From Bacteroidota bacterium (GTDB taxonomy: Bacteria; Bacteroidota; Bacteroidia; JACPRZ01), in the NCBI GenBank assembly GCA_016193485.1, contig JACPRZ010000043.1:96944-160943 (forward strand): a stretch of DNA of 64,000 nt. Direction: 5' to 3'. The notes beneath the pieces were generated by a model that saw nothing but the letters and a program-made list of their open reading frames with translations, did not search any database and was not told the DNA's origin. Every line of letters begins with the position of its first letter. Position 1 is the stretch's first letter. The translations under genes and the position numbers were made by a program. Positions 14,715-37,806 of this stretch are shown one piece after another.

Positions 14715-15131
14715 CTATGGATTCTCAAACTCTTCCATTTTCTTCTTCCATTCATCCGGTATGTGAATGGTTTTTTTTGATTTGTAGTTATATGCCACAA
14801 CAGCAGTCATCCCCGAAGCCGCTTCTTCGCCTGTTTGGACTTTTTCTATCCGGTAGGAGAGATCAAAACTTTTATTGCCGAAACGCGAGCAGCGGGTGTA
14901 AACGAACAATTCTTCATCGGTAAGGAAGACAGGACTTTTAAAATCCACTTCAGCGCGGGCTATGATAATGCCGGTTTCGGACCAATCAATTTCTTTTCCA
15001 ACAACGTCATTGAAATAGTGAATGCGGGCAAGTTCCATGTAGGTCAAAAAAACCGCATGGTTCACATGGCCGATTAGGTCAATATCACCGAACCTGATCT
15101 GGATTTTTATCTGATGGCGGAAATTATTCAT
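14715..15131 (-). CDS. acyl-CoA thioesterase (hotdog fold, YbgC/4HBT family)
   Basis: IRFGDIDLIGHVNHAVFLTYMELAR matches the 4HBT thioesterase core; 4-nt overlap with the upstream phosphatase gene. Confidence 0.8.
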   Translation of the reverse strand: MNNFRHQIKIQIRFGDIDLIGHVNHAVFLTYMELARIHYFNDVVGKEIDWSETGIIIARAEVDFKSPVFLTDEELFVYTRCSRFGNKSFDLSYRIEKVQTGEEAASGMTAVVAYNYKSKKTIHIPDEWKKKMEEFENP

Positions 15132-18100
15132 ATCTCGATGCCAATCACCAGGATGTCATCCATCTGGGCAGTATTGCCTGTGGTTTTCCAGTCCTCGATG
15201 GTTTTGTCAAGCACTTCTTTTTGCCGCTCCATCGGCTGGTCAGCTACGGAGATAATCAGTTCTTTAAACCGTTTCTTCATGAATTTTTTACCATCCGGCC
15301 CTCCGAATTGGTCACCGTACCCGTCCGATGACATGATGAGTTTGTCGCCCTTTTGCAGCGGGATAGTGTGGTTGGTAAAAATCTTATAAATGCCTCCATA
15401 AATACCTATTGGCATTTTATCGGCTTTTGTTTCGAGGACTTCTCCGCCCCTCACAATGTAAAGTGGATTATTTGCGCCTGCATATTCTACGGTCATATTC
15501 TGGTAGTCAAGAGCGAGGAGAGCCATATCCATGCCGTCCTTCTGTTCGCCCGTCTGGCCGGTTTGTCCCAGCGCCCTGATGATACCCTGCCGCAGGTTTT
15601 CAAGTATAAGGGCCGGAGTAACAATTGCTTTTTCACCGACAATTTCATTGAGCAACTGGTGCCCGATCATCGACATGAAAGCGCCCGGTACGCCATGCCC
15701 GGTACAATCGGCTGCGGTGATGAGCATTTTGCCATTCTTTTCAGCGCACCAGTAAAAATCACCGCTTACAATATCACGCGGTTTGTATAGGATGAAATAA
15801 TTCCTGAACATTTTACGTATTACCGGAGGATGGGGCAGCAGGGCATCCTGTATCCGTTTGGCATAGTTGATGCTGTCGAGGATATCCCGGTTTTTCGCTT
15901 CGATTACTTCCTTCTGCTTCACAACTTCTGCAGTGCGCTCCCGGATAATTTTCTGCAATCCGCGTGTTGATACAAGGATTGATCCATAGACAAAACCGAT
16001 AAAAAATAGAACATAACCGGTATATGCCCACCAGGTGCGGTGCCAGGGGGGGAGGATGGTGAATTCATATACTGCTTCGGTGCTTTCGTTGCCGTAAATA
16101 TTCTTTGCCTTAACCCTGAAATAATAAAGTCCTTCAGGAAAGTTTGTATAGACCGCCTTGGTTTCGTTGCTCCATTCGCTCCAGTTTTTGTCGAATCCTT
16201 CGAGGTAATAGGAATAAAGTGATTTTGCCTCATCGGAATAGGATGCCGAAGAAAATTCAAAATTGAGTGAGTTGAATAGATAAGGCAGGACCACTTTCAG
16301 TTCGTGCGGCTGGATGACAGATGAGATTTTATCCTTATCATAGTACGTCCCGTTAAAAATGACCGAGTCCTCATTGATCACTTTCCGTATGATGGAATTA
16401 AAGGGAATGTCATATTTTTTAAGTACACTGTAATCGAACCGCAGTATTCCGACAGTACTGCCGAGCCATACCGTGTTGGGCTCTGGATAGATGGCATAGG
16501 GTAATTCATCCGAAAATGCGGCAAAAGGTTTTGTGATAAACTCATATTTTCCATTGCTGTTTTTCGTGGCAAAGCCGAGTTCCAGAATGCCTTCCTGCAG
16601 TGTATAGTTGGGTAGCCAGATGTTGCCGTGATCATCTTCGATAATGCGGTGCACCCCACTGGAATTGTCGATAAACTGGGTACCGAAAGATGAATCGTGA
16701 ATGAAATTTTCCCCGTCAAAATGAAATAAGTAACCGGGAGCGGCAAATATGACCTTTTCCTGTACTCTTGAAACATAAACATAATCGGAAAGAATTCCGT
16801 TTTTGGTACCGAAAGTATCAATTACAACTTGCCCGGTCATGTCACCGTTATTCACCGGCCCACCGGAATACTTCAATGTTGCCCTGAAAACCCCCCTGGG
16901 CCCTCCGAGCCATAAATTCCCGTCCGGATCTTCCGCCAAACTTTGTATCTCTTCTTCAAATTCAGGAAACGCTCCTTCGTACACCCATTTATTCCGGCTC
17001 CAGTAAAAGGAGGCGAACCCATCCACATATCCGGCAAAAACGCGGTTGGAATCTTTCTCCGACCTGTGAAGCACCCAGGTATTGGGTTTCACCAGCAATC
17101 GCGCTTTATTGTTTTCAATCTGGTAGATTCCTGTGTTCGAAGCAACGAGCAGGTGAGGAGGGGAATAATGGCGAAAGGAGAGCAACGCCCAACATTCATC
17201 CGAAAAATCTTTTATCTGCACGAAGCGGGGATATTCGGGTTTCGGGTTTTTTTCATTTACCCTCAAACTTCGCGGCACAAGATAAAACACTCCGAGGTTT
17301 GTTGCGGTATATAAAGTATCCTTAAACCTGGCGATGGACTGAACCACACCGCTCAACCCGTTGTTATCGTTGAAAATGGTAATGGGAGAAGTGATATCTA
17401 CCCGTGTTATGCCGTTATTCAGTCCAAGCCAGAGGTTATGTTCCTTGTCGAGAAATTGTGAATAAATTGTTTCATCCTGCAACCCGATTTCTTTTGAGAG
17501 GAAATCGACAAGTTGGCCTTTGCGGTTAATTACGGCAATACCTTTATTAATGGTTCCGACAGACACGGCATCGTCCTGTACCAGGATTCCATTATATATT
17601 TTATACCTGAAGAAAAAAGGATCAATCTGCGTGGGGAATGACTTCAGTACAATCAGTTCACTGCCATATTCGGATGTTTGTGATTCACCGGGTGGAAGCG
17701 CCATCGTGAAAAGGCCGCGGATGCTGGTATTGAGGAGCACAACCCGTTCATCAACAGGTGAAAAAGGAACCATGAAGTAGATATTTTCCTCGGCAAAGAG
17801 CTCACCGCCCGGCAGCCTCAGCAGCCGTTCACCTGAAAGTTCAAGCAGGCCTACCGAACGCTGTCTTACTAAAAGACGGTTATGAACATAAAACATTTTG
17901 TGAAAGGTCTGGGTTTCTTCGGCAAGCCATACCTTTATGGTTTTATCCTTATACCGGAATATTTTCTGCGATGTCTGGAAAAAAATACCTTCCCTTGTTG
18001 CGTAACAGGTCCACACATCACCGAATTCTTTGTCTTTATTATCGCTGATCAATCCGGTAAGGGAATTATACCGCATATTCCCCGAAGAATCGGACTGCAG

Positions 18101-18505
18101 GAAACCGAATTCATCCTGCGCTCCCACATAAATAACACCTGTGCTGTCCATGCACAGGGAACGAATGTTTGATTCATTGGTTACGAGTATCTGCCGCCAG
18201 TTCACCCCGTCATATTCAAGAATGCACTGGTTGTTGCTGAAATATAAAACACCTCTTTTATCCTGAACGATTGCCCAGTTCTGAGGAAGCGCCAAGTAAT
18301 CTTTGGTCGTGTAATTACGGGTCGGATAAAACCCTTTTTCAGTGGATGGCTGGGCGAAGAGTAAGGTAGAAGACAGGTTGACAATCAGAAAAAAGAAACA
18401 ACAAGCGGTAAAAAAAAGAATCCTGAATATGTAAAGTGGATTTTTCAAGGATACCTGTTTGGACACTATAGCCATTATGGTGCGAAGATAAGAATTAACG
18501 GACAT
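15128..18505 (-). CDS. periplasmic-sensor (beta-propeller + Y_Y_Y) membrane protein fused to a PP2C/SpoIIE-type serine phosphatase
   Basis: N-terminal TM segment; propeller repeats; Y_Y_Y-like YSYYLEGFDKNWSEW...YYFRVKAKN followed by a TM helix; C-terminal GDFYW...DCTGHGVPGAFMSM...DGMDMAL...SDGYGDQFGG (PP2C SpoIIE-like). Confidence 0.85.
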   Translation of the reverse strand: MSVNSYLRTIMAIVSKQVSLKNPLYIFRILFFTACCFFFLIVNLSSTLLFAQPSTEKGFYPTRNYTTKDYLALPQNWAIVQDKRGVLYFSNNQCILEYDGVNWRQILVTNESNIRSLCMDSTGVIYVGAQDEFGFLQSDSSGNMRYNSLTGLISDNKDKEFGDVWTCYATREGIFFQTSQKIFRYKDKTIKVWLAEETQTFHKMFYVHNRLLVRQRSVGLLELSGERLLRLPGGELFAEENIYFMVPFSPVDERVVLLNTSIRGLFTMALPPGESQTSEYGSELIVLKSFPTQIDPFFFRYKIYNGILVQDDAVSVGTINKGIAVINRKGQLVDFLSKEIGLQDETIYSQFLDKEHNLWLGLNNGITRVDITSPITIFNDNNGLSGVVQSIARFKDTLYTATNLGVFYLVPRSLRVNEKNPKPEYPRFVQIKDFSDECWALLSFRHYSPPHLLVASNTGIYQIENNKARLLVKPNTWVLHRSEKDSNRVFAGYVDGFASFYWSRNKWVYEGAFPEFEEEIQSLAEDPDGNLWLGGPRGVFRATLKYSGGPVNNGDMTGQVVIDTFGTKNGILSDYVYVSRVQEKVIFAAPGYLFHFDGENFIHDSSFGTQFIDNSSGVHRIIEDDHGNIWLPNYTLQEGILELGFATKNSNGKYEFITKPFAAFSDELPYAIYPEPNTVWLGSTVGILRFDYSVLKKYDIPFNSIIRKVINEDSVIFNGTYYDKDKISSVIQPHELKVVLPYLFNSLNFEFSSASYSDEAKSLYSYYLEGFDKNWSEWSNETKAVYTNFPEGLYYFRVKAKNIYGNESTEAVYEFTILPPWHRTWWAYTGYVLFFIGFVYGSILVSTRGLQKIIRERTAEVVKQKEVIEAKNRDILDSINYAKRIQDALLPHPPVIRKMFRNYFILYKPRDIVSGDFYWCAEKNGKMLITAADCTGHGVPGAFMSMIGHQLLNEIVGEKAIVTPALILENLRQGIIRALGQTGQTGEQKDGMDMALLALDYQNMTVEYAGANNPLYIVRGGEVLETKADKMPIGIYGGIYKIFTNHTIPLQKGDKLIMSSDGYGDQFGGPDGKKFMKKRFKELIISVADQPMERQKEVLDKTIEDWKTTGNTAQMDDILVIGIEI

Positions 18506-19182: not shown

Positions 19183-22100
19183 TTAAATTCTCACGCCCAG
19201 GAGGAGAATATCATCTAATTGTTCGAATTTTCCCATCCATTCGGTAACGGTGTGGTTGATGATGCGGAGTTGATCCTGCATGGGTTTGTCTCCGCAGTTC
19301 ATCAGCAAACTGCGCAGCCGGGATGCCTTGAATTTTTTACCCTGGGCGCCTCCGAACTGGTCTTCAATGCCGTCCGAAAAAAGATATACGGTATCGCCAC
19401 CGCACAGTTCAAATTCATAATGAGAGAAGGGAGCGCTGTTCATACTTATGGCAACGGGCTGGCGGTCGGGCATGATTTCGTAGAGGCGGAATTTTTCGTT
19501 TTTATGTTTAACGATAAAAGGTGCATCGGGAATATCGTCATTGTTTGAAACCGGCCGTAATACCCAGATGCCGTTATTGGCGCATGCCCCGCTGAGGCGC
19601 AGCCGTCCGTTGCGGGCAGGGGATAGACAGCAGAGGGCTGCATCCATTCCGTCCTGTTGTTCTCCATATTCGCCTTTTTGCTTCAGGGTAGATATAACTC
19701 CTCTTCTGACTTCATCCAGTATGGAAGCGGGTTGTACTATTTTCTTTTCCGTAACTGCTTCATTGAGCAGTGAGGAGCAGAGCATCGACATGAAAGCCCC
19801 CGGTACTCCATGACCGGTGCAGTCGCAGGCGGCAAAGAGAATAGTATTGCCGTCAGGTGAAGAAGGCGGCAGGGCGAGCCAGTAGAAATCACCGCTGACG
19901 ATGGCTTTTGGACGGTGCAGAATAAATGACTCAGGCAGGAATTTCTTCCAGTAACTTTCGGTAGGAAGCATCGCTTCCTGAATCTTTTTTGCATAGGTAA
20001 TGGAATCGGTGATGTCCTTGTTTTTTTCGGCAAGTTCCCTGTTCTTATGGGCGAGTTCCTGGGTGCGTTCCTGCACCAGGTGCTCCAGCCGCCTTTTCTC
20101 GTGGATGAGATTTCTTTCGCGGACCCGGATGACAACATAGATGAGGGAAACGACAACGGTTACGAAAACCAGATAAAACCACCACGTAAGCCAGAAGGGG
20201 GGGGTAATGGAAAATGAGAAGGTGACCGGATTCTTATTCCAGACGCCTGCATCATTGGAAGCGATGAGTTCAAAATCATAATCTCCATGAGGGATATTTG
20301 AATAGGTTACATAACCCTCGCTCACTTCGGGAGACCATCCTTCTTCAAAACCCCTGAGGCGGTATTTATATCTGACCTTTGCCGGATTGGTAAGGGATAC
20401 ACCGATAAAATACAAACTCATCGTATTCTGGTAATATTTCAGTACCGGGTTGTCGGGTAAAAAGGTATCATTCTGATTGATCCTGATCCGGTATATGGAG
20501 GTTACTGGTTCCACCCCGTTGGGCTGTTCAAGCGAAGGGTTGAATTTAAGCGCTCCCATGATCGTACCAAACCAGATATTGCCCAGCCGGTCAATGGTAA
20601 CGGCATTGGCGTTGTTTTCAATACCCATAAACCCTTCGGTACGGCCGTAATGAGTGAAGGAATTATTTTTCCTGTCATACCGGTCAATCCCGTTGCTTGA
20701 GCCGATCCACAGGTTGTCCCGCTCATCGCAGATGATGGAATAGGGCGTACGTGTGCTCAATCCGGCTTCATGCGTATAATTGGTGAAACGGGCTTTATCT
20801 CCCGATTCCGGATTGTAACTGTAAATACCCCCCCCATAAGTGCCGAACCAGATATTACCCGATTTGTCTTCGGCAATACTCAGGATGAATTTATGCAGCA
20901 GACCGTGGTTTTCGTTGAAGGTGGTGAATTTCTGGTTAAAAAAGAGGGTGAGCGATCCTCCCAGCGAACCCATCCACAGGTCACCGCGGCTGTCGCGGAA
21001 AATCCGGAATATGCTGTTCCCGCCCAGGCCGCTTATGCTGCTGAAACTATTAAATGATTTTTCGGCAGGATTATACCTTGAAGCGCCCCTCGGAGTACCG
21101 AACCAGATATTGCCGGAGGGATCTTCGCAAATGGACAAGACAGTGTTGTCGGCAATACCGTCATCAGCGGACCAGGAATTGAATTTGTTATTCCCGGGGT
21201 CGAATGCACACACCCCCCCTCCTGCTGTGCCGATCCATATTGTTCCGTTGCCATCCTCGTACAGGGAGCGAACAGAATTTGCAGGCAACCCGTTTCTGAC
21301 GGAGTAATTGGTAACCTGGTAATTGCCTGCCACTGCCGAAGTTCCGCCATCATCACCGGAAAACGGATGCAGACATGATACTCCCTTATTGGTTCCCATC
21401 CAGACATTACCTTTGGTATCGGCAAGGATGGACCATACGATATTGTCGGTAATTCCGTAACTTTCATCAAACAGTTGGAATTGCTCGCCCCTGAAACGGT
21501 TCAGCCCCAGATCGGTGGCGATCCAGATATTTCCTTCCCTGTCTTCAAAGATGTCGTTTACCCTGTTGTAATTAAGACCATGTGCAGTGCTGTAATTAGA
21601 GTACCGGCCTGGCGTGGGAAAGGAATTTTCTTTACCCCTTGTCGGTGTGAAGCAAATTACACCGGTGTCTGCCGTGGCAAGCCAGATATTCCTGCGGGAA
21701 TCACGGTAAATTTTAGATACAAATTCCGGCATCAATCCTTTACCTGGACGAATGATCGTTTGCGGCAGGTTCCTGAAGTTTTCAGCGGTAATTTTATCCG
21801 TTACGTTGACGGCAAAAACCCCTGTGCCTTCAAGGGCAATCCATATTTGTGTGCCGAGGGCCTGTTTAATGTCGTTTACAAAATCGGAAGGCAGACCGTT
21901 TGATGTGTTAAGGTAAAAGAATGCGCCTGCCGAATTCATATCTACTGAAGGGGTATAGATGGTAATACCGGCATCTGTTCCGAACCAGATATTACCGTAA
22001 GAATCCTGCATGATGCAGGTAATATTGTTGCTGCTTAATCCGTTGATCCTGTTTATCAGAAGAATTTTGTTCGTTTTATGTTCATACTTCACTACTCCCG

Positions 22101-22539
22101 AACCGTATGTGCCGGTCCAGATATTTCCTTCCTTATCTTCAAGGATGGATGATACGCTCCGGAATTCAAGAAATTCCTCTAGCCCGATGGTTTCAAAGGT
22201 ATTGGTCAGGATATTATATTTTGAGATTCCGCCTGTCCAGTGCCCGAACCAGAGGTTTCCTTTGCGGTCGCGGTATGCTGTGGTGATCCAATCTTCCGAC
22301 AGGCCGTCAAGTTTGGTAAAGGTCACAAATTCCTTTCCGTTATAGCGGGTAAGGCCTGAGAGTGTCCCCAGCCAAAGGTTTCCGGCACTATCCTGGTTGA
22401 TGGTCTGAATCTGCGACTGCGGCAGACCGCTTTCGGTGCCGAAATGGACGAAATGCGTGATTTGTCCCATGCATACTTCTGATGCAATATGAAGGTATAT
22501 AGTTATTATCGGGACAATATGTATAAAATATTTTCTCAT
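19183..22539 (-). CDS. periplasmic-sensor (beta-propeller + Y_Y_Y) PP2C/SpoIIE-type phosphatase, paralog of 15128-18505
   Basis: Same architecture: propeller repeats (NLWLGT, NIWFGT and similar), Y_Y_Y (VRYKYRLRGFEEGWS), TM helix, coiled coil, C-terminal GDFYW...DCTGHGVPGAFMSM...SDGIEDQFGG. Confidence 0.85.
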   Translation of the reverse strand: MRKYFIHIVPIITIYLHIASEVCMGQITHFVHFGTESGLPQSQIQTINQDSAGNLWLGTLSGLTRYNGKEFVTFTKLDGLSEDWITTAYRDRKGNLWFGHWTGGISKYNILTNTFETIGLEEFLEFRSVSSILEDKEGNIWTGTYGSGVVKYEHKTNKILLINRINGLSSNNITCIMQDSYGNIWFGTDAGITIYTPSVDMNSAGAFFYLNTSNGLPSDFVNDIKQALGTQIWIALEGTGVFAVNVTDKITAENFRNLPQTIIRPGKGLMPEFVSKIYRDSRRNIWLATADTGVICFTPTRGKENSFPTPGRYSNYSTAHGLNYNRVNDIFEDREGNIWIATDLGLNRFRGEQFQLFDESYGITDNIVWSILADTKGNVWMGTNKGVSCLHPFSGDDGGTSAVAGNYQVTNYSVRNGLPANSVRSLYEDGNGTIWIGTAGGGVCAFDPGNNKFNSWSADDGIADNTVLSICEDPSGNIWFGTPRGASRYNPAEKSFNSFSSISGLGGNSIFRIFRDSRGDLWMGSLGGSLTLFFNQKFTTFNENHGLLHKFILSIAEDKSGNIWFGTYGGGIYSYNPESGDKARFTNYTHEAGLSTRTPYSIICDERDNLWIGSSNGIDRYDRKNNSFTHYGRTEGFMGIENNANAVTIDRLGNIWFGTIMGALKFNPSLEQPNGVEPVTSIYRIRINQNDTFLPDNPVLKYYQNTMSLYFIGVSLTNPAKVRYKYRLRGFEEGWSPEVSEGYVTYSNIPHGDYDFELIASNDAGVWNKNPVTFSFSITPPFWLTWWFYLVFVTVVVSLIYVVIRVRERNLIHEKRRLEHLVQERTQELAHKNRELAEKNKDITDSITYAKKIQEAMLPTESYWKKFLPESFILHRPKAIVSGDFYWLALPPSSPDGNTILFAACDCTGHGVPGAFMSMLCSSLLNEAVTEKKIVQPASILDEVRRGVISTLKQKGEYGEQQDGMDAALCCLSPARNGRLRLSGACANNGIWVLRPVSNNDDIPDAPFIVKHKNEKFRLYEIMPDRQPVAISMNSAPFSHYEFELCGGDTVYLFSDGIEDQFGGAQGKKFKASRLRSLLMNCGDKPMQDQLRIINHTVTEWMGKFEQLDDILLLGVRI

Positions 22540-23954
22540 TTTCCGAATGAAAAGCGGTTTAGCTCACGTAAATAATCATCTTTTGAAATTTCTTTTCGGT
22601 TTTTAAAATAATTTTCAGCGCCCCACAGGTACGATGCTTTTTGCAGGGTATCCCTGCGGGTCGGAAAATAGATCACGGTAGTATTAACGGTTACGAGTAT
22701 TTCTTTTTTTTCGGTCTGGACCATGCGTGGAATATATTCGTATTTCGGGAATTTTGTCGCTGCAGTGGGTTTGTATATTTTTTTTTCAGAAGGATTTTTT
22801 TGGGCGGATTCCGTTTTTGCGAGACGTTCATTTTCGGCAGCCATCACCATCAGCGATCTCATCTGTCCTGAATAAATCTGCCTCCGGGTATCAGAAACAA
22901 TTTCTGCATTGCGGGATTTCATGGCATTAGTGCCGGCAATATTTTTTGTTTCGGTATCTTTTTTCATCAAATCTTCAGCGCTCTTCGCTTCGGCCGCCTT
23001 GCGCATTTCGGCAAGCCGCGCCAGTTTTTCTTTATCCGCAAGTTCTGTAGTTCCGGGTGAGATGCCGGTCAGTTTTTTCTCATCTTCGGTCTTGATTTTT
23101 TTATTGGTTCCGGCTTCCAAAGTTCTGGCTTCTTCTTCCCTTGCCTGCCGTTCTAATTCCGATTTCATAGCTTCATCGCGTTTTTTCTGCTCTTCGGTAA
23201 TGCTGGCGGCAAGCAGCCGGTCTATTTCTCCTATTTTTTCAAGAGCGTAGGTTTCATCCGGTTTTACGGCATGCGCCTGCAGATAATATGCTTTTGCATT
23301 TGCATAGTCCTCCTGCTTAAAATGAGCATCGCCTTTCGCTATCGCTTCCTTATATTTGGCTTCTGTTTCGGCTTTCTTTTTTTCTTCTTCCATCTTTTTC
23401 TTCCGGTAATCGGCAATCAGTTTGTACCGTTCATCGGCTTCGGCCCTGAGTATGGCGAAGAGCGCTTCAACGCGCGCACGTATGGAATTAAAGTAGGCCT
23501 TATCATCATAAAAATCCCTGCGTTCGGGATTATAGGAGAAACGTGAGACCGGTTTCTCAAGAATTGAGGTGAGGTCTTTATCGAGACCGGGAACCATCTC
23601 AAAAAGTTCTATGGTTGGAATATAAGTGGGATAATGAACCCCATAGTCGGGCGGGACTCTTGCAGATACATAGTGCCTGAGCGTGACGTGCCCGTATTTG
23701 GAAAGTTCAATAATATATTCATCATCTTTGACGGTAAGCGGAAGTTCTTTGAATGTGAACTTGCCGTTGTTTTGGGTAATTTCTGTGGTAATTTTAGTTC
23801 CGTTTTTATAAAGAACGGCAGTCACCCCCGGGAGGGTTTTGCCATGAAGAACCACCGTTCCTTTGATGGTCATGTATCCGAGGTCCTGCGCGTAAGCCGT
23901 TTGGAAGAGAAAAATAAAGAAGGGAATGAATAATATGCGGCAGAAAAGTTTCAT
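22536..23954 (-). CDS. secreted protein with CarboxypepD_reg-like N-terminal domain and Lys/Glu-rich coiled-coil region
   Basis: Signal peptide; IKGTVVLHGKTLPGVTAVLYKNGTK (carboxypeptidase regulatory-like beta-sandwich); long EEKKKAE-rich helix; start overlaps the stop of the upstream phosphatase. Confidence 0.55.
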   Translation of the reverse strand: MKLFCRILFIPFFIFLFQTAYAQDLGYMTIKGTVVLHGKTLPGVTAVLYKNGTKITTEITQNNGKFTFKELPLTVKDDEYIIELSKYGHVTLRHYVSARVPPDYGVHYPTYIPTIELFEMVPGLDKDLTSILEKPVSRFSYNPERRDFYDDKAYFNSIRARVEALFAILRAEADERYKLIADYRKKKMEEEKKKAETEAKYKEAIAKGDAHFKQEDYANAKAYYLQAHAVKPDETYALEKIGEIDRLLAASITEEQKKRDEAMKSELERQAREEEARTLEAGTNKKIKTEDEKKLTGISPGTTELADKEKLARLAEMRKAAEAKSAEDLMKKDTETKNIAGTNAMKSRNAEIVSDTRRQIYSGQMRSLMVMAAENERLAKTESAQKNPSEKKIYKPTAATKFPKYEYIPRMVQTEKKEILVTVNTTVIYFPTRRDTLQKASYLWGAENYFKNRKEISKDDYLRELNRFSFGK

Positions 23955-24010
23955 TGAATAGCGAAATTACGAAAATATAGGGCAGTCGGGCACAGAAGAG
24001 GGCGGAATGG

Positions 24011-24166
24011 CCTGCCTGCCGGCAGGCAAGGGCTACATTCCCATTGATCAGGTGTGAATTTTTTTGTTTTCCTGATCTGATGAAGTCCGATACTAGTCCT
24101 GACGTTTACGATCAGGATGCAGACATTTATCGTCTGCATCAGATTCATCGGACCGGCAGGCAGGGA
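24011..24166. repeat. complex palindromic region (cctgcctgccggcaggcaagg; nested insert with gatgcagacatttatcgtctgcatc; tail tcatcggaccggcaggcaggga)
   Basis: Shares gtccgatact(a/c)gtc and tcatcggaccgg(c/t)aggcaggga with 37746-37806, and the gacatttatcgtc core with 1298-1314. Confidence 0.6.
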
Positions 24167-24224
24167 TAAATGATTGCCTATGCTGCTGGAAAAAATACAA
24201 ATGTGATTACAAATGTGTTGGGGT

Positions 24225-26465
24225 TTAACCGATAATTTTCTGCACCAGATTGTCTATGTTTTTCAATTCAGATGCAAGATTGTTTTTAATGGCAACCCGC
24301 AATAGACCTAAGTAAATTGCAGTTAGTTCTTTTTGCGGTGGGTTGTTCTTTAAATATTTTGCCGTTTTGTCGTGTGCCTCTTTGCTAAGTTTTGCCAAAC
24401 GCAAATGTGTTTCATTTTCTTTGTCAAACTTTGGGTAATACATGTCAAGAATTTTTTTATGAACATCTCTTGCACCGAATAAACCTTTTGTCTGGAAATC
24501 TTTCATTAAAAGGTTTGGGGAAGTTGCATTGAGAATAGCAGTCAGATAATATGCTTCGTTTGAACTGTTGGTAACAAATGAATATCCTTTGCTTTCAACA
24601 ATAAATTCCAAATCAAAGTCCTTTCTTTTTACTACAGTTGCGTTTGCATTTTTTGCAGAAGAATTGTAGATCACTAAATAAGGCGCGTTAATATGTTGTT
24701 CAGTTAATCCTCTTTGAAAATCAAGACGGTCATTGCTTGACATGTTTTTTGATTTTGCAGTTTTTTGCAAATCCCAAATTCTTTCAGCATTTTTAAACCA
24801 TTTTGAAGCATGTAAATATCCTTCGCTTCTTAATTCATCTGCCAAGTAGATTTTGATTTCCTTTTTATTTTCATTTTGATTATATTCAACGGTAATAGGA
24901 AGAACAACTAAATCGGGTTTGAATAACGCAAAAGGTAAAATACTTTTTGATAGTGCGGTGCGGAAAAGAAAACGGCTTTCAATTTGACCAGTGAAATCAA
25001 GTCCCTTCCAAGGTTTTTTTGCGACTGCCTGAATGGAATCAGAAGTTTTTATGTTAATAATTCTACCTTCCCAATCAGGCGGATATTCTTGTGTGAGTTG
25101 AATAAAATAAAATGTGCGCGGGACAATAGTAGCGCCTTGTTTGAATAATTTTTTATATGGATTTATGTTGGTTTGTTTCTTTGATTTACGCGGTGAAAAT
25201 GCTGATGACTTTCCCTGTTTTACATAAAACCAATTTTCACTTTTTTCAACAAGATTCGGCATTGCTGATTTAAGATTGCAATTGTGTGAAGGTACATTTC
25301 CACTGAAGCTTATTCCACCGATACCGGTAGCAGGCAATGATTTTTTCCCGTTTGTTTTTTCAGCAAATAAGACACCGCTCGGAATACGGAATAAAGGGGC
25401 GACTTTATTTAAATCCCAAATATTTGTAAGGCGAAATCCTTTTGCTTTTCCGCTTCTCGTATTATCGTGATGGTCTGCGCTGAAAAAACTACGCGGTAAA
25501 ACAAAAGCAATTTTCCCGCTATCATTTAAAAAATAATTGGCACAATGGGATAAAAATATTGCGGCAATTTCAAGGTGCGGGAAGTTTGCTTTTTTGTCGG
25601 GTTTTACAAGATAGATTTCAGCAAGTTTATTTAGTATGTTCTGATATTCTTCGTTCCTGATTGAACTGTATGTGAACCAGGGAGGATTGCCTATGATGTA
25701 ATCAAATTTTCCATGCAAAAAATAGGGTTTGTAAATATTTTGCAAAATGAATTTCCAAATGCTGTCTCTGCCTTTTTCTTTTACAGATTTCAAGCCAAGA
25801 TATATTTTGTAAAATCCATTTGTAATATTGCCATTAAATCCGTTCTTCGGGAATTTTTTACATAAAATATTTTCAAAAGTTTTTTCATCTTCGGCTTTGG
25901 TATGCAATGTTTGATCTGCCAATTCTTCGCACAATTCCAAACCCTCATCAAATAATTCAATTTCTTCCAACACTTGTGTATTGAGTAAAAATACTTCTTT
26001 GTCAATTTTTAATTTGAATTCGCTGCCGAATAAACTTCCAACTCCATCGGGGGCTAATAGCGTGTTTGCAAGGATAATATTTATGTGAATAGGTTTTTTA
26101 GATTTTACAATTTCTTTTCCCAATGAAAGAAGCATTGTTGTTTTTGCAATCTGTACGGAAAGGGGATGAATGTCTATTCCGAAAATATGTTCATTGAGTT
26201 GTTCGGCAGAAGTCCCCGGATGATTTTTTTTTATCCGGTGAATGGCAGCGCGGAGAAACGAACCGCTTCCGCAAGCAGGGTCAAGGATTTTGTCAGTGGG
26301 TTTAAAATTGAATTCTTTTACAATTCTTTCGCATAACCAGTCGGGCGTATAATACTCGCCTAATGCGTGGCGCGTGTCCAAATCAATTAATTCCTGGTAA
26401 CCAGAAGAAAAAATCGTTGTCAACAAAATTGCGGATGTTGTATTTATGAAAAACAGTGCCGTCAA
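24225..26465 (-). CDS. N6-adenine DNA methyltransferase domain plus putative target-recognition region of a Type IIG (MmeI-like) restriction-modification enzyme; C-terminal part of a split gene
   Basis: SAM-binding motif ILDPACGSGSFL and catalytic motif YIIGNPPWFTYS (gamma-class N6-adenine MTase); about 450 aa C-terminal extension; overlaps the upstream ORF by 83 bp in another frame. Confidence 0.75.
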   Translation of the reverse strand: MTALFFINTTSAILLTTIFSSGYQELIDLDTRHALGEYYTPDWLCERIVKEFNFKPTDKILDPACGSGSFLRAAIHRIKKNHPGTSAEQLNEHIFGIDIHPLSVQIAKTTMLLSLGKEIVKSKKPIHINIILANTLLAPDGVGSLFGSEFKLKIDKEVFLLNTQVLEEIELFDEGLELCEELADQTLHTKAEDEKTFENILCKKFPKNGFNGNITNGFYKIYLGLKSVKEKGRDSIWKFILQNIYKPYFLHGKFDYIIGNPPWFTYSSIRNEEYQNILNKLAEIYLVKPDKKANFPHLEIAAIFLSHCANYFLNDSGKIAFVLPRSFFSADHHDNTRSGKAKGFRLTNIWDLNKVAPLFRIPSGVLFAEKTNGKKSLPATGIGGISFSGNVPSHNCNLKSAMPNLVEKSENWFYVKQGKSSAFSPRKSKKQTNINPYKKLFKQGATIVPRTFYFIQLTQEYPPDWEGRIINIKTSDSIQAVAKKPWKGLDFTGQIESRFLFRTALSKSILPFALFKPDLVVLPITVEYNQNENKKEIKIYLADELRSEGYLHASKWFKNAERIWDLQKTAKSKNMSSNDRLDFQRGLTEQHINAPYLVIYNSSAKNANATVVKRKDFDLEFIVESKGYSFVTNSSNEAYYLTAILNATSPNLLMKDFQTKGLFGARDVHKKILDMYYPKFDKENETHLRLAKLSKEAHDKTAKYLKNNPPQKELTAIYLGLLRVAIKNNLASELKNIDNLVQKIIG

Positions 26466-27288
26466 TGATTCCTTTCATTTCGTCATCGCTAATATAATCA
26501 TCATTGCTGACCACCGTATATGCCAACATTTTTGAAAAGACAGAAAGATAGGTATGAATAAGAAAATTATTTTCGCTTGCGTCATAAGAACCGTAAGCAA
26601 TGCTCAAAAACTTTTCCCATTGCGCATAAGAAACCTGAATCTCACCGTATTTTTTTACATCCCGGAAATGGTTTGACATTTCACGATAACAATCAATGAA
26701 AATACCGCTTTGATAGCCGAATGATTCTTCAATTCTCTTGAGGGTCGCTTTTTGTTTTTCTTCTTTGAAAAGAAATCTGTCAATCCAGAAATAAAAATCG
26801 TCTGCGTTATTTTCTGACAGGGTGAAAGAAGCAGAGGCGATTTCGTTCAATTTTAATTTATCTTCCGTGAGTTCTTCCAGTATATCAATTTGTGAAATGT
26901 CGGGAGCAAAAACTTTCCAATTGATAAAGTCGGAAGCAATTAGGGTGTAGTTGTAACCTTCGCCTGAATTAACCTGGCCTAAAAGATAACCCGCCAGTTG
27001 TTCTTTGGCGTGTTTCAAAGTAAATTTCAGGTCGTTTTCAAATTCAATAATGATTTTATTATAAAGGGTGTCGGCACTACCCTTGTGCATTTTGTCCTTT
27101 CGGGGAATATTCAGGACCGTTTTTTCAGCACCGCTTGTAATTTTGTCAATTATTTTTTTTATCTCTTCTTCACCGGAATATAATCGGTTGAGCAGGTCTT
27201 TGAATAATTCTTTTTTGGCGAGTTCTTTATTGGCAGTTTTTATCTTTTGCCGGTATATTTCAATCAGTTCGTTTCTGTTTTGGTCCAT
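26383..27288 (-). CDS. N-terminal (nuclease-like) domain of the Type IIG-like enzyme, separated from the methyltransferase domain by a frameshift
   Basis: 301-aa ORF ending inside the start of 24225-26465; its tail ...NDFFFWLPGIN* joins the downstream frame ...SGYQELID by a 1-nt shift near a T6 run. Confidence 0.55.
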   Translation of the reverse strand: MDQNRNELIEIYRQKIKTANKELAKKELFKDLLNRLYSGEEEIKKIIDKITSGAEKTVLNIPRKDKMHKGSADTLYNKIIIEFENDLKFTLKHAKEQLAGYLLGQVNSGEGYNYTLIASDFINWKVFAPDISQIDILEELTEDKLKLNEIASASFTLSENNADDFYFWIDRFLFKEEKQKATLKRIEESFGYQSGIFIDCYREMSNHFRDVKKYGEIQVSYAQWEKFLSIAYGSYDASENNFLIHTYLSVFSKMLAYTVVSNDDYISDDEMKGIIDGTVFHKYNIRNFVDNDFFFWLPGIN

Positions 27289-27365
27289 TGTAAATTATCT
27301 CTTTAAAACATTGTAAAAATACCATTTATTCCTGTTTGGCGGTTGCGGGCGTAACTGCCGATGAT

Positions 27366-27446
27366 CTGGAGGGAGGTGACATTGAGGGATTTGATGTAGG
27401 GGATTGAGGGGATGAGGGAATGAGGAATTAATAACATGAGGGAATT
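27366..27446. promoter_or_regulatory. purine-rich tgaggga-type short repeats upstream of the Type IIG-like gene
   Basis: ggagggagg, ttgagggat, ttgagggga, atgagggaa, tgaggaatt, atgagggaat within 80 bp; a similar ttgagggagg and G-rich tract recurs at 29680-29840. Confidence 0.35.
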
Positions 27447-27565
27447 AAAGGATCAGAAGGGAACAAGAAAAGATATTTATTGGCATAGAGTTGGTAATTT
27501 TCGTTATGGAAAAAGAAAAGGGATAGTGGAGGATTACGATACAAAGAAAGATTAGGTAAATGGCT

Positions 27566-28282
27566 TTAGTTTGTTAACGTGTGAATCAACAATCTTGCTT
27601 CCGGAATTTCTTTATAGACATTATTAATATTATCTTCGGTTAAATATGTATTAATTGTTTTGAATAACTTACCACTTCTAAATGCTTCAGGAATGGATTC
27701 AGTATCATACACCTTTTTTTTTAATTGAGGGGTTGGGTGCAAATATCTAATATTCTCTTTTGAAATATCAAATATGCAGGATGCGACAAGTATTTCTGAA
27801 CTTGGGAATAATATTAGTGGAATGAAATATGGCAATATTTCGTAATTATAACCTTGTTTAACCATTTCTTCGTAGAATTTTTCAATTGAAAAATAAATTA
27901 ATCTATTAATACTATAAGCCCATTCAGTGAAGTAATTTGAGCGGTCTTTCAGAAGTTTTTCCGTATCAGAATTGATAATTATTATTTCTTTATTTGAAAT
28001 TGCAGAATTTACCCTTAAAGTTTTTTGGTAACAAGCATAATAAATAGCAATCAAATCTTTTAATAATTTATTGGAATCATCAGAAGTAAATGAGTAATTG
28101 GATGAATTTGAAGTGTTATGCAGATATCTTGATAAAGAATTAAAAATATTCAATTGATCCAGGTCAATAAAGCAATTATCGGGTAATTCCTCCTTCCGGT
28201 GTTTTTTAAAAATGGATTGTAAAAATTTTCGGATAACATAAAAGTCACTTAGCCCGTCACGAAGTATTGCAATATTTCGCAT
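27566..28282 (-). CDS. small partner protein of the upstream ATPase; possible RloB/TOPRIM-like effector (unassigned)
   Basis: Start 3 nt after the ATPase stop; N-terminus MRNIAILRDGLSDFYV (hydrophobic strand then D-G-x-S-D) resembles the start of RloB/DUF4276-type partners; later IIIINSDTEKLL acidic patch; AT-rich. Confidence 0.5.
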   Translation of the reverse strand: MRNIAILRDGLSDFYVIRKFLQSIFKKHRKEELPDNCFIDLDQLNIFNSLSRYLHNTSNSSNYSFTSDDSNKLLKDLIAIYYACYQKTLRVNSAISNKEIIIINSDTEKLLKDRSNYFTEWAYSINRLIYFSIEKFYEEMVKQGYNYEILPYFIPLILFPSSEILVASCIFDISKENIRYLHPTPQLKKKVYDTESIPEAFRSGKLFKTINTYLTEDNINNVYKEIPEARLLIHTLTN

Positions 28283-28285
28283 AAA

Positions 28286-29581
28286 TTAAATTTCACCTAA
28301 AACACCATTATAGAAAAGTTCAACTAAATCGAATGGTTTAATAGCAATTATTTTTTTATTATTCACTGTAATTTCCTCACCCTCAACAGTACCCATATTG
28401 ACAAGGGGTTTAATTGCGTCATTTAAGTTTGTAACAAGTGTAATAAAATCTTTTTCTTTCAAATGGAAATTATAAACGGAATCGGGCCGTTGTGAGAATT
28501 CCCGAATTACGGATGGGCTGTGGCTGGTAAAAATAAACTGTGTTTTTTTTGAATTATCAGATGTATCTCTTAACCAATTAAGAAATTCATGAAGATTTTT
28601 TTGATTTATACCATTTTCTATTTCTTCAATCATAATCAATGCGGGAGGTTTGCGAATAGAGCAAAGGAGGGCAATTGCTGCAGCTCTAACTAACCCATCA
28701 GATATTTTATCAGGGTCATAGTAAGGGAAGTTTGAACCACCCATATCAAATTGCCATTTTAAACCATTTTCCTTTAAAACGAAGTTATTGAAATTTTTAA
28801 CGAACCTTTTAAGGTAACCAATAAATCGACTAAAAGTTTCTTGATCCTGCTCTTTAATAAAACAGAGTAATTCCAGAAGGTTTCCCCCTTCCTTACCGAT
28901 TGCGCTTGGTGGATATGGAAAGACATTATTTGTTTTAAAATTACCTAAAAAATCTTTTTTATAACTCGGTACTAGTTTACCTCTAATATAGGAGCCGGAA
29001 AATGCATCTCCTTTTAAAAAGGACGGTTGAAAATTATAATAATAAAAAGTTGCAAGATCGTGGAAAAATAAATTAACTATTTCTTTTTCCCGGAAATGGT
29101 TATTAGATTCATATATTTTTTTTCTTAAAAGTAATTTGGAAGAATTTATATCAAAGCCATTTTCAAATGTTATGTTATTATCAGGAAATAAAAGGGTTAA
29201 TTTCTCGGTGCTTAAAATTAAGCGATCATCTTTTATATTAGGAAAAATTGAGAGGTTATATTCTATATTGTAATTATCTTTACTCCATATGCATCGAAAA
29301 CTAATTGGTTCACCAATTTTGCACATTGAATGTTTATTTGAATTGTATTCGTATGAACGAAGGTCAGAGAAATAATATTCATCTTGACTTTCATGATCAG
29401 TTTCATGAATTGGTTCTTTAACAGGATTATATCGACTTATCAATCTAGAAAAAAAATGCAGACCCCTAAGGAAATTACTTTTACCAGAGTTATTAGAGCC
29501 GATAATTAAAGACAAATCAATGGGTTCAATGGCAGTACATTTATGGGTTCTGTAATTTTTTAGTTCTAATAATTTAAACAT
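28286..29581 (-). CDS. ABC-type (AAA_15/AAA_21, OLD/SMC-like) ATPase, defence-associated family
   Basis: Walker A LIIGSNNSGKSN near N-terminus; D-loop/Walker B ALIMIEEIENGI; H-loop FIFTSHSP; 431 aa; AT-rich. Confidence 0.75.
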   Translation of the reverse strand: MFKLLELKNYRTHKCTAIEPIDLSLIIGSNNSGKSNFLRGLHFFSRLISRYNPVKEPIHETDHESQDEYYFSDLRSYEYNSNKHSMCKIGEPISFRCIWSKDNYNIEYNLSIFPNIKDDRLILSTEKLTLLFPDNNITFENGFDINSSKLLLRKKIYESNNHFREKEIVNLFFHDLATFYYYNFQPSFLKGDAFSGSYIRGKLVPSYKKDFLGNFKTNNVFPYPPSAIGKEGGNLLELLCFIKEQDQETFSRFIGYLKRFVKNFNNFVLKENGLKWQFDMGGSNFPYYDPDKISDGLVRAAAIALLCSIRKPPALIMIEEIENGINQKNLHEFLNWLRDTSDNSKKTQFIFTSHSPSVIREFSQRPDSVYNFHLKEKDFITLVTNLNDAIKPLVNMGTVEGEEITVNNKKIIAIKPFDLVELFYNGVLGEI

Positions 29582-29861
29582 AAGAATAATATTGAGCAGT
29601 TGTTAATTTGGCGGATTTGCAAGTTTTTTTTCGAACCATTAGCGAGCAACAAAGGTAGAAATTCTTCGGGAATGATAAGGTAGTCTTCGGGATTGGGAAT
29701 GTGAAATATTTTTGATGTTGATGTTTAGTCCTGGTCGGGACCGTTGAGGGAGGCAGCCCACCCTGCCCCTTCAAAGGGGGGGGAAGTCGCGAAGGGATGG
29801 AGATAGGCGGGTGAGGTTTGTCGGGTGGAAACACACGATTGCACAAGGGAAGCATTATTCT

Positions 29862-32800
29862 TCACTTCGCCATCTGTTCCCGTGCCGTGGCGGTCTGCAT
29901 GTAGCGTGCTTGCAGTTTTTTGAACCGTTCGTCCAAATCCTTATTGAGTTCTTCCTGCTTGTAGATTTTTGTTACGGTGGATAATCGTCCCATGATGGAC
30001 ATTGAGCGCTGCATATCTTCGGCAATATGCGCTTCATATTCCCCGCCTACCGTAAAATAATAATCAAGATCATCTTCGCATACTTCGGCAAGGCGTTTTA
30101 TGATCGGGTTTGCCTTATCGTGTTTTCCTGCGCGGTAATACGCTTCGGCAATGGGCAGAATAAGGAAGTTATAGGGGACGGTTTTTTCAGGCACCACTTC
30201 CATACATTTATCCAGCACGGCAACGGCAGAGTCCTTTTTTCCCTCCATGATCAGCGCATTGGCAAGGCGGGCGAAATTATTGCGGAAGTTCATGGTCATG
30301 CGCGAAATATTTTCATCAAGCGAAAAACCGGGATGCGTCAGGTTACCCCATTTGAATTTGTTCATCAGGTTATCGTACATGATATCGGTAGCAACCCTCC
30401 CGGTTTGTCCGTCAGGGCTTTCATTGCGGATCGGAACGAGGCGGTAGGCAAGCCCTTCCAACTGGAAATAGGGCTCTAACTGAAGATATGCTTCGGAGCC
30501 GACAGTGATGGCAAAATAAACAGGACGTTTCCATTCGTTATGCGCAATCAGGTCAAGCACCATCAGGTCATTTTTCATAAGGTAGTTCTGCCTGACGGTC
30601 CACTCTATTGAAGTAACTATTTTTCCTGTATCCTGCGGTTGCACATTTCCTCTTGTCAGCATTTTGTTCAGGGATTGTCCCGGCTTTTGCGGTTCTCCCA
30701 TCATTTGTGTTTGCACATTTTCAAGGACTTTCTTTTTATCAACAGGCAGGCGGAATGACTTGGACGGATAGTAGTTGATCAGTTTACCGCTGACGGTCTG
30801 CAGTTTCGCCTGCGGGTCATCTGATCCGATGAAACTCATCAGGTCTTTGAGGTCAACCGGACCTTTGAGTTTACGGTCATAAAAGGGTGCAAAATCACGG
30901 GTGCCCTGGCGGTATCGGTCAGGGGAAAGCGTAAACGGCACAGGGTCCGAATCATAAGCCTTCCGTCTCATCTGGTCGATGTACCAGTCAGTATTAAGCA
31001 AACTCAAATTGACCACGCGCACATCGGTTCGCACGCCCTCAACTTCCTGTACGTACCAGAGGGGGAAGGTATCGTTATCGCCATTGGTGAATAAAATCGC
31101 ATTCGGTGCGCATGATTCAAGGTAATTGGCGGCAAAGTCGCGTGCCGTGTAACGCATGGAACGGTCATGGTCATCCCAACCCTCTTTTGCCATTATAGCA
31201 GGAACCGGGCTGCAGATGATTGTTGCAATTACCGGAACCATTACCGGCACAATTTTTATTTTTGATGATATCCATTCGGCAATTGCCATCACACCGAGAC
31301 CAATCCATATTGCAAAAGCGTAAAATGATCCCACGTAAGCGTAATCACGTTCACGCGGCTGGTAGGGATACTGGTTCAGGTAAACTACAATGGCTAGCCC
31401 GGTCATAATAAAAAGAATAAGAACTACAAAGGCACCCTTGTTTTCGCTCCGGAAATGATATATGAGACCGATAAGGCCAAGTATGAGAGGAAGAAGGTAA
31501 AACCTGTTACGGGCTTTACTATTTGCTAAACTTTCAGGAAGGTTCTCCTGGGGACCTGCCTGCATTTTGTCAATAAAAGGGATACCGCATATCCAGTTGC
31601 CTTCGGTGGGTCCGCCATGGCCCTGTATGTCATTCTGCCGTCCGGCAAAATTCCACATAAAATAGCGGAAGTACATCCATCCTACCTGGTATTTGAAAAA
31701 GAATTTGAGGTTCTGGCCGGATGTGGGTTTTTTGTCTTTCGGCCCGCTTATTTCACCCCATGTTTTATATGCGCTTATATGGGAGCCCTGGTCGCTCCAC
31801 ATCCTTGGAAGGACAGTGCAATATTCAGGATCATAATTAGGGATTGAACCCTTGCGGTCGTCTGTTACAACGTATATTCCTTTTTCTTTATCGGGAGCAT
31901 AAACAGGTGAACCGTCCTTGTAGGGATCGGACGGGTCAAGCGGAGCATTAAAATGTTGCCCGTATAATAATGGACGGTCGCCATATTGTTCACGGCCGAG
32001 GTAGGCGAGCAAACTGAACATGTTCTCGGGATTATTTTCATCCATCGGGGGGTTTGAAAGGGATCGGATCACGGTCACGGCAAAGGTGGAGTACCCGATG
32101 ACAATCACTGTAAAACAAAGAATGGCTGTATTGACGACCGGGTGATTTTTTTTTCTTGACCAGTGAAGGCCCCAGATGACAAGCGCTATGAGGAGAAGGA
32201 TATAAAAAATTATTCCACTGTTAAACGGAAGCCCGAATGAATTTACGAAAAGCAATTCAAATTTGGAAGCAAGAATTATCACACCCTGGATAACACCAAC
32301 CTGGATAGTACCGAGAAGAATCATAGAGATAAGTCCCGTAATAATGATCCCGTTCCGTGTTACCGGAAATTTTTTGAAATAATAGACAAATGCAATAGCC
32401 GGGAGAGCGGTGAGGTTCAGCAGGTGCACACCCACGGAAAGTCCGCACAGGTAGGCGATGAGCACCAGCCAGCGGTCGGCATATTTTTCTTCGGCAACAT
32501 TTTCCCATTTGAGGATAGCCCAGAAGACAACTGCCGTAAAAAGCGAAGAAAGCGCATATACTTCTCCTTCCACTGCCGAGAACCAGAACGAATCGCTGAA
32601 GGTGTATGCCAGCGAACCGATAATACCGCTTCCGATGACGGAAGGAATTTTTTCGCCTGGGATCTCAGCGCCATTGCGGCTGATGATTTTTTTTGCCAGT
32701 GCGGTTATGGTCCAGAAAAGAAAGAGAATGGTAAAGGCGCTGGCAATTGCCGATAACGTATTTATGCACAGTGCAACAAGAGTTTTGTCGGCAGCAAAAA

Positions 32801-32996
32801 GAGAAACAATCCTGCCGAGGAGCATGAAAAAAGGAGCGCCCGGTGGATGCCCCACTTCAAGTTTATATGCGGTGGCGATAAATTCCCCGCAGTCCCAGAA
32901 ACTTGTGGTTGGTTCAGTAGTGGAAATGTAAACGAATGCGGCAATGAGAAAAATTATCCAGCCGGTAATAATATTGGTGCGTTGGTAGAGGTTCAT
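29862..32996 (-). CDS. DUF2723-type polytopic membrane protein (putative glycosyltransferase-like) with C-terminal TPR-like region
   Basis: N-terminus TSFWDCGEFIATAYKLEVGHPPGAPFFMLLGR is characteristic of DUF2723 membrane proteins; many TM helices; helical repeat C-terminus. Confidence 0.75.
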   Translation of the reverse strand: MNLYQRTNIITGWIIFLIAAFVYISTTEPTTSFWDCGEFIATAYKLEVGHPPGAPFFMLLGRIVSLFAADKTLVALCINTLSAIASAFTILFLFWTITALAKKIISRNGAEIPGEKIPSVIGSGIIGSLAYTFSDSFWFSAVEGEVYALSSLFTAVVFWAILKWENVAEEKYADRWLVLIAYLCGLSVGVHLLNLTALPAIAFVYYFKKFPVTRNGIIITGLISMILLGTIQVGVIQGVIILASKFELLFVNSFGLPFNSGIIFYILLLIALVIWGLHWSRKKNHPVVNTAILCFTVIVIGYSTFAVTVIRSLSNPPMDENNPENMFSLLAYLGREQYGDRPLLYGQHFNAPLDPSDPYKDGSPVYAPDKEKGIYVVTDDRKGSIPNYDPEYCTVLPRMWSDQGSHISAYKTWGEISGPKDKKPTSGQNLKFFFKYQVGWMYFRYFMWNFAGRQNDIQGHGGPTEGNWICGIPFIDKMQAGPQENLPESLANSKARNRFYLLPLILGLIGLIYHFRSENKGAFVVLILFIMTGLAIVVYLNQYPYQPRERDYAYVGSFYAFAIWIGLGVMAIAEWISSKIKIVPVMVPVIATIICSPVPAIMAKEGWDDHDRSMRYTARDFAANYLESCAPNAILFTNGDNDTFPLWYVQEVEGVRTDVRVVNLSLLNTDWYIDQMRRKAYDSDPVPFTLSPDRYRQGTRDFAPFYDRKLKGPVDLKDLMSFIGSDDPQAKLQTVSGKLINYYPSKSFRLPVDKKKVLENVQTQMMGEPQKPGQSLNKMLTRGNVQPQDTGKIVTSIEWTVRQNYLMKNDLMVLDLIAHNEWKRPVYFAITVGSEAYLQLEPYFQLEGLAYRLVPIRNESPDGQTGRVATDIMYDNLMNKFKWGNLTHPGFSLDENISRMTMNFRNNFARLANALIMEGKKDSAVAVLDKCMEVVPEKTVPYNFLILPIAEAYYRAGKHDKANPIIKRLAEVCEDDLDYYFTVGGEYEAHIAEDMQRSMSIMGRLSTVTKIYKQEELNKDLDERFKKLQARYMQTATAREQMAK

Positions 32997-37745: not shown

Positions 37746-37806
37746 GCACCTGCCTGCTCTGACGGAGTCCGATACTCGTCAGAGTCATCGGACCGGTAGG
37801 CAGGGA
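37746..37806. repeat. palindromic element (ctctgacg...cgtcagag; tcatcggaccggtaggcaggga), simple form of the 24071-24166 element
   Basis: Shares gtccgatact and tcatcggaccggNaggcaggga with 24080-24166 but lacks the inner gacatttatcgtc insert. Confidence 0.6.

Follow-up and report, generated by a model that had tools for sequence, protein, structure and literature searches.

A probable acquired defense islet in a Bacteroidota genome, with an apparently inactivated Type IIG restriction-modification gene beside an intact ABC-type ATPase operon

ATP-binding cassette (ABC) ATPases that act with varied effectors are a recurrent defense architecture (Payne et al., 10.1101/2024.01.29.577857). The FAM_00005 ATPase pairs with alternative partners in HEC-01, PDC-M07, -M25, -M29, and -M31; in PDC-M31 the cassette reads FAM_00005>>FAM_00304, and HEC-01 and PDC-M07/M25 likewise begin with FAM_00005 (10.1101/2024.01.29.577857). 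The HEC candidates were picked from among genes located inside Hma systems, and the 145 PDC candidates were predicted by guilt-by-embedding and are untested (10.1101/2024.01.29.577857). PDC-M31 is mentioned in a single supplementary table and in no searchable paper text. Here we describe a low-GC segment within 64,000 nucleotides (nt) of a Bacteroidota metagenome-assembled genome (MAG; contig JACPRZ010000043.1, the whole stretch being referred to below as the window), in which an ATPase of this general kind and a smaller partner are encoded next to a split Type IIG restriction-modification (R-M) gene. We think it probable that this is a horizontally acquired defense islet of ~5.5 kb, in which two independently arrived modules, a dead Type IIG gene and an intact ATPase-partner pair, lie side by side. 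Domain and PADLOC profile searches bear out both gene assignments, which had been proposed in an initial annotation made from the sequence. The islet comprises the following features.

28286-29581, minus strand: ABC-type ATPase (AAA_15 + AAA_21 by domain profiles), 431 amino acids (aa)
27566-28282, minus strand: partner protein, 238 aa, without a family match
27289-27565: inter-module spacer, 277 nt
26383-27288, minus strand: N-terminal open reading frame (ORF) of the putative Type IIG R-M pseudogene, matched by the PADLOC REase_MTase_IIG model
24225-26465, minus strand: C-terminal ORF of the putative Type IIG R-M pseudogene, with methyltransferase motifs and the C-terminal region
26398-26400, minus strand: junction where 110 nt present in intact homologs are missing (protein and nucleotide alignment)

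The low GC content noted initially is confirmed by the composition profile. Positions 24167-29861 have a GC content of 0.339 versus 0.428 elsewhere, the minimum among all 5.7-kb intervals of the window. The four island ORFs have GC of 0.28 to 0.36 and third-position GC (GC3) of 0.23 to 0.38, with GC3 of the remaining 33 ORFs at 0.42 +/- 0.07, and the tetranucleotide composition of the island also deviates from that of the host. From 19183 to 32996 every gene is on the minus strand. The surroundings of the islet are as follows.

29862-32996, minus strand: DUF2723/TMEM260-like gene (E = 3.6e-75)
29582-29861: right intergenic region, AT-rich beside the ATPase start and G+C-rich beside the DUF2723 stop
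23955-24224: left intergenic gap, 270 nt, from the Type IIG stop to the start of the 472-aa gene; GC 0.46, host-like
22536-23954, minus strand: 472-aa gene, with a CarboxypepD_reg match that is sub-threshold only

The DUF2723 label previously given to the right-hand flank stands, but the CarboxypepD_reg-like label on the left has only a hit of 17.5 bits behind it (E = 0.0054), below the cutoff of 32.3 bits.

The cargo and the core of this genome have very different relatives. The source MAG belongs to a deep Bacteroidota lineage, and its flanking genes have distant matches: among GTDB species representatives no DUF2723 ortholog exceeds 58% identity, and the closest relative found for the 472-aa gene shows an overall identity of 34%, rising to 46% in its best segment; a metagenome scan with the latter gene found no relatives. 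The Type IIG gene, in contrast, is 64 to 79% identical to homologs that include Ignavibacteria, and an identity of 79% while the flanking genes reach only 34 to 58% is good evidence of transfer. Neither module is present at any of 80 DUF2723 loci, all of which are at most 58% identical and not syntenic with the window. The locus in the nearest relative (L083; loci retrieved here carry L numbers) keeps the pair formed by the 472-aa gene and a Reg_prop/SpoIIE gene (46% and 45% identity), but has nusA-infB as the upstream neighbor, which places the island exactly at a synteny breakpoint. In the window the Reg_prop/Y_Y_Y/SpoIIE genes are tandem paralogs (15128-18505, 1,125 aa; 19183-22539, 1,118 aa), 29% and 45% identical to the single L083 ortholog. 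The islet sits between the DUF2723/TMEM260-like gene and this conserved pair. Composition, cargo-versus-core identity, patchy distribution, and synteny together support the earlier proposal of an acquired island and the accompanying suggestion of two independent modules.

Several observations weigh against acquisition, and would suit the alternative that the segment is old resident DNA whose AT-richness reflects gene-specific constraints. There is no integrase or transposase among the island ORFs, no tRNA in the window, and no convincing flanking direct repeat; the best att-like repeat between the borders matches at 16 of 19 nt, which 3.7% of shuffles reach, and one of its copies lies inside a host palindrome. 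The collections searched contain no close relative of the MAG, and hence no empty site was found. In other hosts, too, the modules have a lower GC content than the DNA around them (0.305 versus 0.42, 0.349 versus 0.429, and 0.328 versus 0.403), so the low GC may be a family trait. We nonetheless consider a resident origin very improbable: the Type IIG gene is 79% identical in protein and 80 to 86% in nucleotide sequence to its homolog in another MAG, far above the flanks; the modules have a patchy, cross-phylum spread in unrelated contexts; and the segment coincides with the break in synteny. The right-hand part of the arrangement is reproduced by an independent Logan assembly (L081), which contains DUF2723, ATPase, partner, and spacer in this order at 100% identity and ends at 27258. 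A second contig (L082) was rejected as an empty site or strain variant; it ends at the right border in CTGTCTCTTATACACATCT (4999-5017), a sequencing adapter that we take to be Nextera, and Logan contig ends can thus mimic breakpoints.

Defense genes are often transferred in clusters, and one transfer could have brought in both modules as a ready-made island; they are adjacent, co-oriented, and both AT-rich. We regard this as unlikely. The modules differ in GC content (0.35 to 0.36 in the Type IIG halves and 0.28 to 0.30 in the ATPase pair) and also in GC3, and the nearest Type IIG locus is homologous only within the limits of the gene itself. Homologs of one module or the other were found in unrelated contexts elsewhere, and no fetched locus carries both. 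The intact Type IIG homologs are solitary genes amid housekeeping genes at unrelated locations, and we favor independent arrival of the two modules, the Type IIG gene as a solitary mobile gene that would have been killed by an internal deletion at the start of its methyltransferase domain.

The Type IIG module is recognizable throughout most of its length. The C-terminal ORF matches N6_Mtase (4.5e-19), Eco57I (1.1e-16), and, weakly, MmeI_Mtase (7.7e-8), as well as the PADLOC REase_MTase_IIG model (PDLC03630; 2.5e-61), and contains both the S-adenosylmethionine-binding motif I (DPACGSG) and catalytic motif IV (NPPW). The N-terminal ORF has no Pfam match and corresponds to positions 25 to 315 of the 1,100-position REase_MTase_IIG model in a weak match (2.4e-7); within this region, a putative nuclease domain, GSADTLYNKIIIEFENDLK is strictly conserved across homologs. 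A search of the PDB with the gene found no close solved structure, the match being confined to the methyltransferase motif region. The family is large (>2,000 proteins at E <= 1e-20), with full-length relatives of ~1,055 aa in Bacteroidota, Chitinophagales, Pedobacter, and Ignavibacteria aligning over 100% of the query, the closest being the homolog in another Bacteroidota MAG cited above. The gene resembles the Eco57I/MmeI-like Type IIG class in that its intact relatives are single polypeptides of ~1,050 aa and its N-terminal region weakly matches the nuclease part of the IIG model, with gamma-type N6-adenine methyltransferase motifs, a long C-terminal region, and no separate methylase; it differs in that the MmeI_Mtase match is weak and the window copy is deleted and frameshifted.

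The lesion is well defined by comparison with intact homologs. Nucleotide alignment to locus L091 pairs window positions 27242-26398 with 4365-5209 (85.6% identity) and 26400-24229 with 5317-7500 (79.4%), and the 110 nt absent at the junction remove 37 codons and shift the frame, such that the gene is no longer a single uninterrupted frame. The missing 37 residues (IKNEKSF...EDILKGV) lie between '...DNDFFxW' and 'YQELIDLD...' in the intact proteins. As the start of the methyltransferase domain is deleted and the N6_Mtase Pfam match begins only at model position 24, loss of both activities is the expected outcome; this copy is thus most likely a pseudogene, with restriction lost and methylation most likely lost too. 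A one-base slip in a T6 tract was considered as the cause of the split, and deleting one T does give a 1,020-codon ORF, but the alignment to intact homologs shows the 110-nt deletion, and both the slip and phase variation are therefore rejected.

It should be noted that the 110-nt deletion and the left junction, from the Type IIG gene to the 472-aa gene, are known from one MAG assembly, a point that counts against our interpretation. The split could have arisen as an artefact of assembly or consensus calling, or could be one variant within the population, with an intact, active enzyme in the organism: the source is a short-read MAG, there is no further stop in the 1,020 codons besides the deletion, no independent assembly spans the junction (L081 stopping short of it), and neither ORF product is recorded elsewhere. 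However, a clean loss of 110 nt amid collinear sequence of 80 to 86% identity is atypical for consensus error, and the NCBI annotation of the same contig likewise has only the C-terminal product, of 733 aa (P0155). We consider such an artefact improbable, and the gene is treated below as inactivated.

The second module is intact. The ATPase has a complete Walker A motif (GSNNSGKS) and matches AAA_21 (3.1e-24) and AAA_15 (5.6e-16), and the AriA, AbiLi, HEC-01A, MADS3, and PDC-M07A/M25A models match at 1e-14 to 1e-24, none at its curated equivalog cutoff; on these profile matches it is assigned to the HEC-01A/PDC-M07A/AriA-like group. The partner gene starts 3 nt after the ATPase gene, and the two-gene operon is uninterrupted. 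The pairing is conserved, with the ATPase followed by a co-oriented partner in every locus with upstream DNA (L085 to L090, L106 to L111, and L112; the ATPase of L088 is cut by the contig end).

The genomic contexts of this pair are repeatedly those of defense or mobility. In L087 it directly follows an hsdM-hsdS-(PDDEXK)-hsdR Type I R-M operon in the same orientation, and in L089 it adjoins a nucleotidyltransferase toxin-antitoxin pair. On three phage-like JGI contigs with runs of small ORFs, an IS1595-family transposase gene lies 12 nt upstream of the pair (L106, 2534-5508; L109, 342-3316; L107, 1355-5182), and a tRNA-Glu lies ~650 nt downstream. The Planktothrix pseudagardhii plasmid p1 (L112; NZ_LR882968.1, 4689-6708) carries the pair between HmaA (4.4e-157) and HmaB (5.3e-127), its partner being a distant family member with 27% identity.

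The partner family is rare. Of 5.8 billion proteins 32 belong to it, as do 106 representatives out of 1.84 billion; every member is a standalone protein of about 230 to 250 aa, and a search of a phage collection with the window partner gave no match. An alignment of 52 members has invariant G10, D13, D106, P151, P160, and K188, and near-invariant D9, D99, E108, S161, Y192, and P227-E228-x-R230. An AlphaFold model (pLDDT 87.5, pTM 0.86) predicts a Rossmann-like alpha/beta fold with acidic residues after beta-strands, the DGxxD motif following beta-1 and the DxE motif following a central strand, and the top structural neighbors of the model are Argonaute MID domains. To us DGxxD and DxE resemble the EGxxD and DxD of TOPRIM, which is our own reading of the motifs rather than a test result, and the predicted placement of the acidic residues suggests a metal-dependent, possibly Toprim-like, nuclease. 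Assignment of the partner as TOPRIM, DUF4276, or AriB was rejected, as there is no support from hidden Markov models or PDB sequences and weak structural support; one of the 52 members matches OLD-like_TOPRIM, weakly (E = 0.068). The PDC-M31B model weakly matches 18 of the 52, over the first ~30 residues only (E >= 5e-4).

Comparison with described systems shows partial likeness to each. As in PARIS, a two-gene operon codes for an ABC-type ATPase and then a smaller partner, the ATPase matches AriA models (4.5e-24), and the pair occurs in mobile and defense contexts; unlike in PARIS, the partner matches neither AriB/DUF4435 nor any TOPRIM model, and at 238 aa it differs from AriB, described as about 35 kDa. 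The ATPase likewise matches several HEC-01A, PDC-M07A, and PDC-M25A models, the gene order is that of PDC-M31, whose B component has about 241 positions, and the embedding of L112 in an Hma system recalls the source context of the HEC candidates. In HEC-01, however, the B component is a TOPRIM protein, which the window partner is not detectably. The position after a Type I R-M operon in L087 is reminiscent of PrrC-type embedding, but PrrC is one polypeptide that includes a fused anticodon nuclease, and the window pair neighbors an apparently dead Type IIG gene with no sign of functional coupling. By analogy we treat this module as a putative ABC-ATPase/effector defense pair, without assigning it to PDC-M31, PARIS, or HEC-01. 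In such a system the ATPase would sense an infection cue and then release or activate the partner, as in the PARIS, AbiL, and HEC-01 pairs, and the partner would act as the effector, possibly as a metal-dependent nuclease.

Other results count against this reading of the pair. The window partner has no match in Pfam, NCBIfam, PADLOC (even at E <= 10), or PDB sequences; it lacks a PDC-M31B match altogether, its relatives matching over ~30 N-terminal residues only; and HEC-01 gave no protection in its authors' assays, the PDC systems being untested (10.1101/2024.01.29.577857). The pair could instead be an addiction module of toxin-antitoxin type, or its ATPase and partner could serve DNA repair or housekeeping. 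In favor of this, AAA_21 carries a second annotation as a putative AbiEii toxin domain, the ATPase has weak similarity to RecF/SMC heads, the evidence for defense is contextual, and the system that failed to protect has an ATPase of the same family. Against this, the pair is found repeatedly in or beside Type I R-M, Hma, Type IIG, a toxin-antitoxin pair, and insertion sequence- or phage-like contigs, and its rare, patchy distribution is unlike that of a housekeeping function. We therefore think a non-defense role quite unlikely and retain the pair as a candidate defense module.

The ATPase-partner module is flanked by two tracts of strongly skewed composition.

27360-27460, minus strand (sense): first C-rich, G-poor tract, 34 C versus 2 G per 80 nt, just downstream of the partner gene
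29730-29852, minus strand (sense): second C-rich tract, 37 C versus 9 G per 80 nt, after the DUF2723 stop and upstream of the ATPase gene

On the plus strand these are the purine-rich sequences initially described as repeats shared by the spacer and the right border. As composition they are real: the spacer tract ranks first and the right-border tract third for C/G skew in the 64 kb, their skews of 0.48 and 0.43 are outliers among 21 intergenic gaps (the others being <=0.28), and, read on the sense strand, no other stretch following a gene in the window is as C-rich and G-poor. The spacer is 64.6% purine, and the first tract holds 3.9 copies of the 8-nt unit GATGAGGG on the plus strand. A shared repeat they are not, since their alignment score of 19 compares with a shuffle mean of 19.3; the 10-mer ttgagggagg, reported in both, occurs exactly only at 29744, the spacer having TGGAGGGAGG at 27367, and TGAGGGA is not enriched across the window (10 found versus 6.9 expected). 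Nor do these tracts mark the island borders, as they are not copies of one another and bracket the ATPase-partner module only. The 93-aa ORF at 29574-29855 has no family match and is probably not a real gene, being a proline-rich translation of the C-rich strand. The only other G-quadruplex-like cluster of G runs on the plus strand of the window, besides these two tracts, is at 2892-2931, inside the 1,008-aa gene at 1383-4409.

Two ordinary origins for the tracts were tried and rejected. A C-rich tract is not a conserved 3' feature of DUF2723, with none of 73 orthologous loci reaching a skew of 0.30, and it is not a genome-wide intergenic style, for which the result was not significant and the two tracts stand out among the gaps. 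In L085 and L086, too, the two strongest skew peaks of the locus lie on either side of the module, the upstream one inverted; in L085, an unrelated 242-kb contig, these are at 5525-5605 and 7768-7847, the downstream one being overlapped by a 189-aa ORF without a family match. A weaker tract follows the partner gene in L087. Skewed flanks are not seen in L088, L089, or L106 to L111, which detracts from any general link with the module. The composition of rut-type sites (C-rich and G-poor over ~80 nt of the transcript after the stop) is found after both the partner gene and DUF2723, and we speculate that the tracts may be Rho-type insulating terminators of foreign genes, as predicted from composition; G-quadruplex/i-motif structures and recombination scars are alternative readings. 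The stronger proposition, that the partner family is an undescribed effector class and that the skewed CCCTC/GAGGG tracts, at no fewer than two independent loci, are also functional, as insulators or as recombination hot spots aiding insertion, is one to which we give little credence at present.

The left-hand gap contains a palindromic element that had been taken for the other island border, and a related element is present elsewhere in the window.

24011-24166, minus strand: nested palindromic element with 12- to 13-nt inverted arms CCTGCCTGCCGG / CCGGCAGGCAGG
37749-37806, minus strand: compact 58-nt second copy, 29 to 86 nt upstream of the lpxC-fabZ start (about 37720)

The density of palindromes described there is genuine, with five matches to the palindrome motif versus 0.11 expected and a fold z-score of -5.1 on both strands; nested hairpins lie between the arm CCTGCCTGCCGG (24011-24022) and its complement (24153-24164). 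Its interpretation as an island border does not hold. The element has normal, host-like GC (0.46), and the second copy lies away from any island, in the divergent gap common to lpxC-fabZ (a core LpxC-FabZ fusion gene) and holA. The two copies within 64 kb have the arms and core in common, and the inner stem ATCTGATG/CATCAGAT of one copy is CTCTGACG/CGTCAGAG in the other, which we read as two paired changes. The left element is thus most likely a host intergenic repeat, possibly of the REP/MITE-like kind, and not an island boundary; it may be a shared operator or a 5' untranslated region structure. Rfam at gathering thresholds gave zero matches in the whole window, with one chance-level match in the segment, and a metagenome scan with a 20-nt palindrome arm gave eight hits, all coincidental and inside coding sequences of unrelated high-GC organisms.

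Three other regions of the window have unusual composition. Positions 61000-64000 form a second strongly AT-rich stretch (GC 0.29 to 0.32), including a minus-strand radical-SAM gene (61577-62809; GC 0.289), and may be another acquired segment. Two very large genes at 47324-56619 (1,494 and 1,376 aa) have second-position GC (GC2) of 0.53 to 0.60, far above their GC3 of 0.36 to 0.37, and a tetranucleotide deviation equal in size to that of the island. A 1.5-kb gap at 45083-46615 has no ORF of >=180 aa and a GC of 0.34 to 0.37, with a strong G-rich skew peak nearby, at ~44404.

This locus is an ordinary small defense islet of a well-known kind, and the main value of its analysis is a correct annotation: the Type IIG gene here is most likely dead, not phase-variable or merely split, and conspicuous repeats at a border can be unrelated host DNA. 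Of modest interest are the skewed flanks and the unannotated partner family, with its consistent defense and mobile contexts. These contexts are now of five kinds, making the family a reasonable candidate for testing beside the PDC and HEC candidates.

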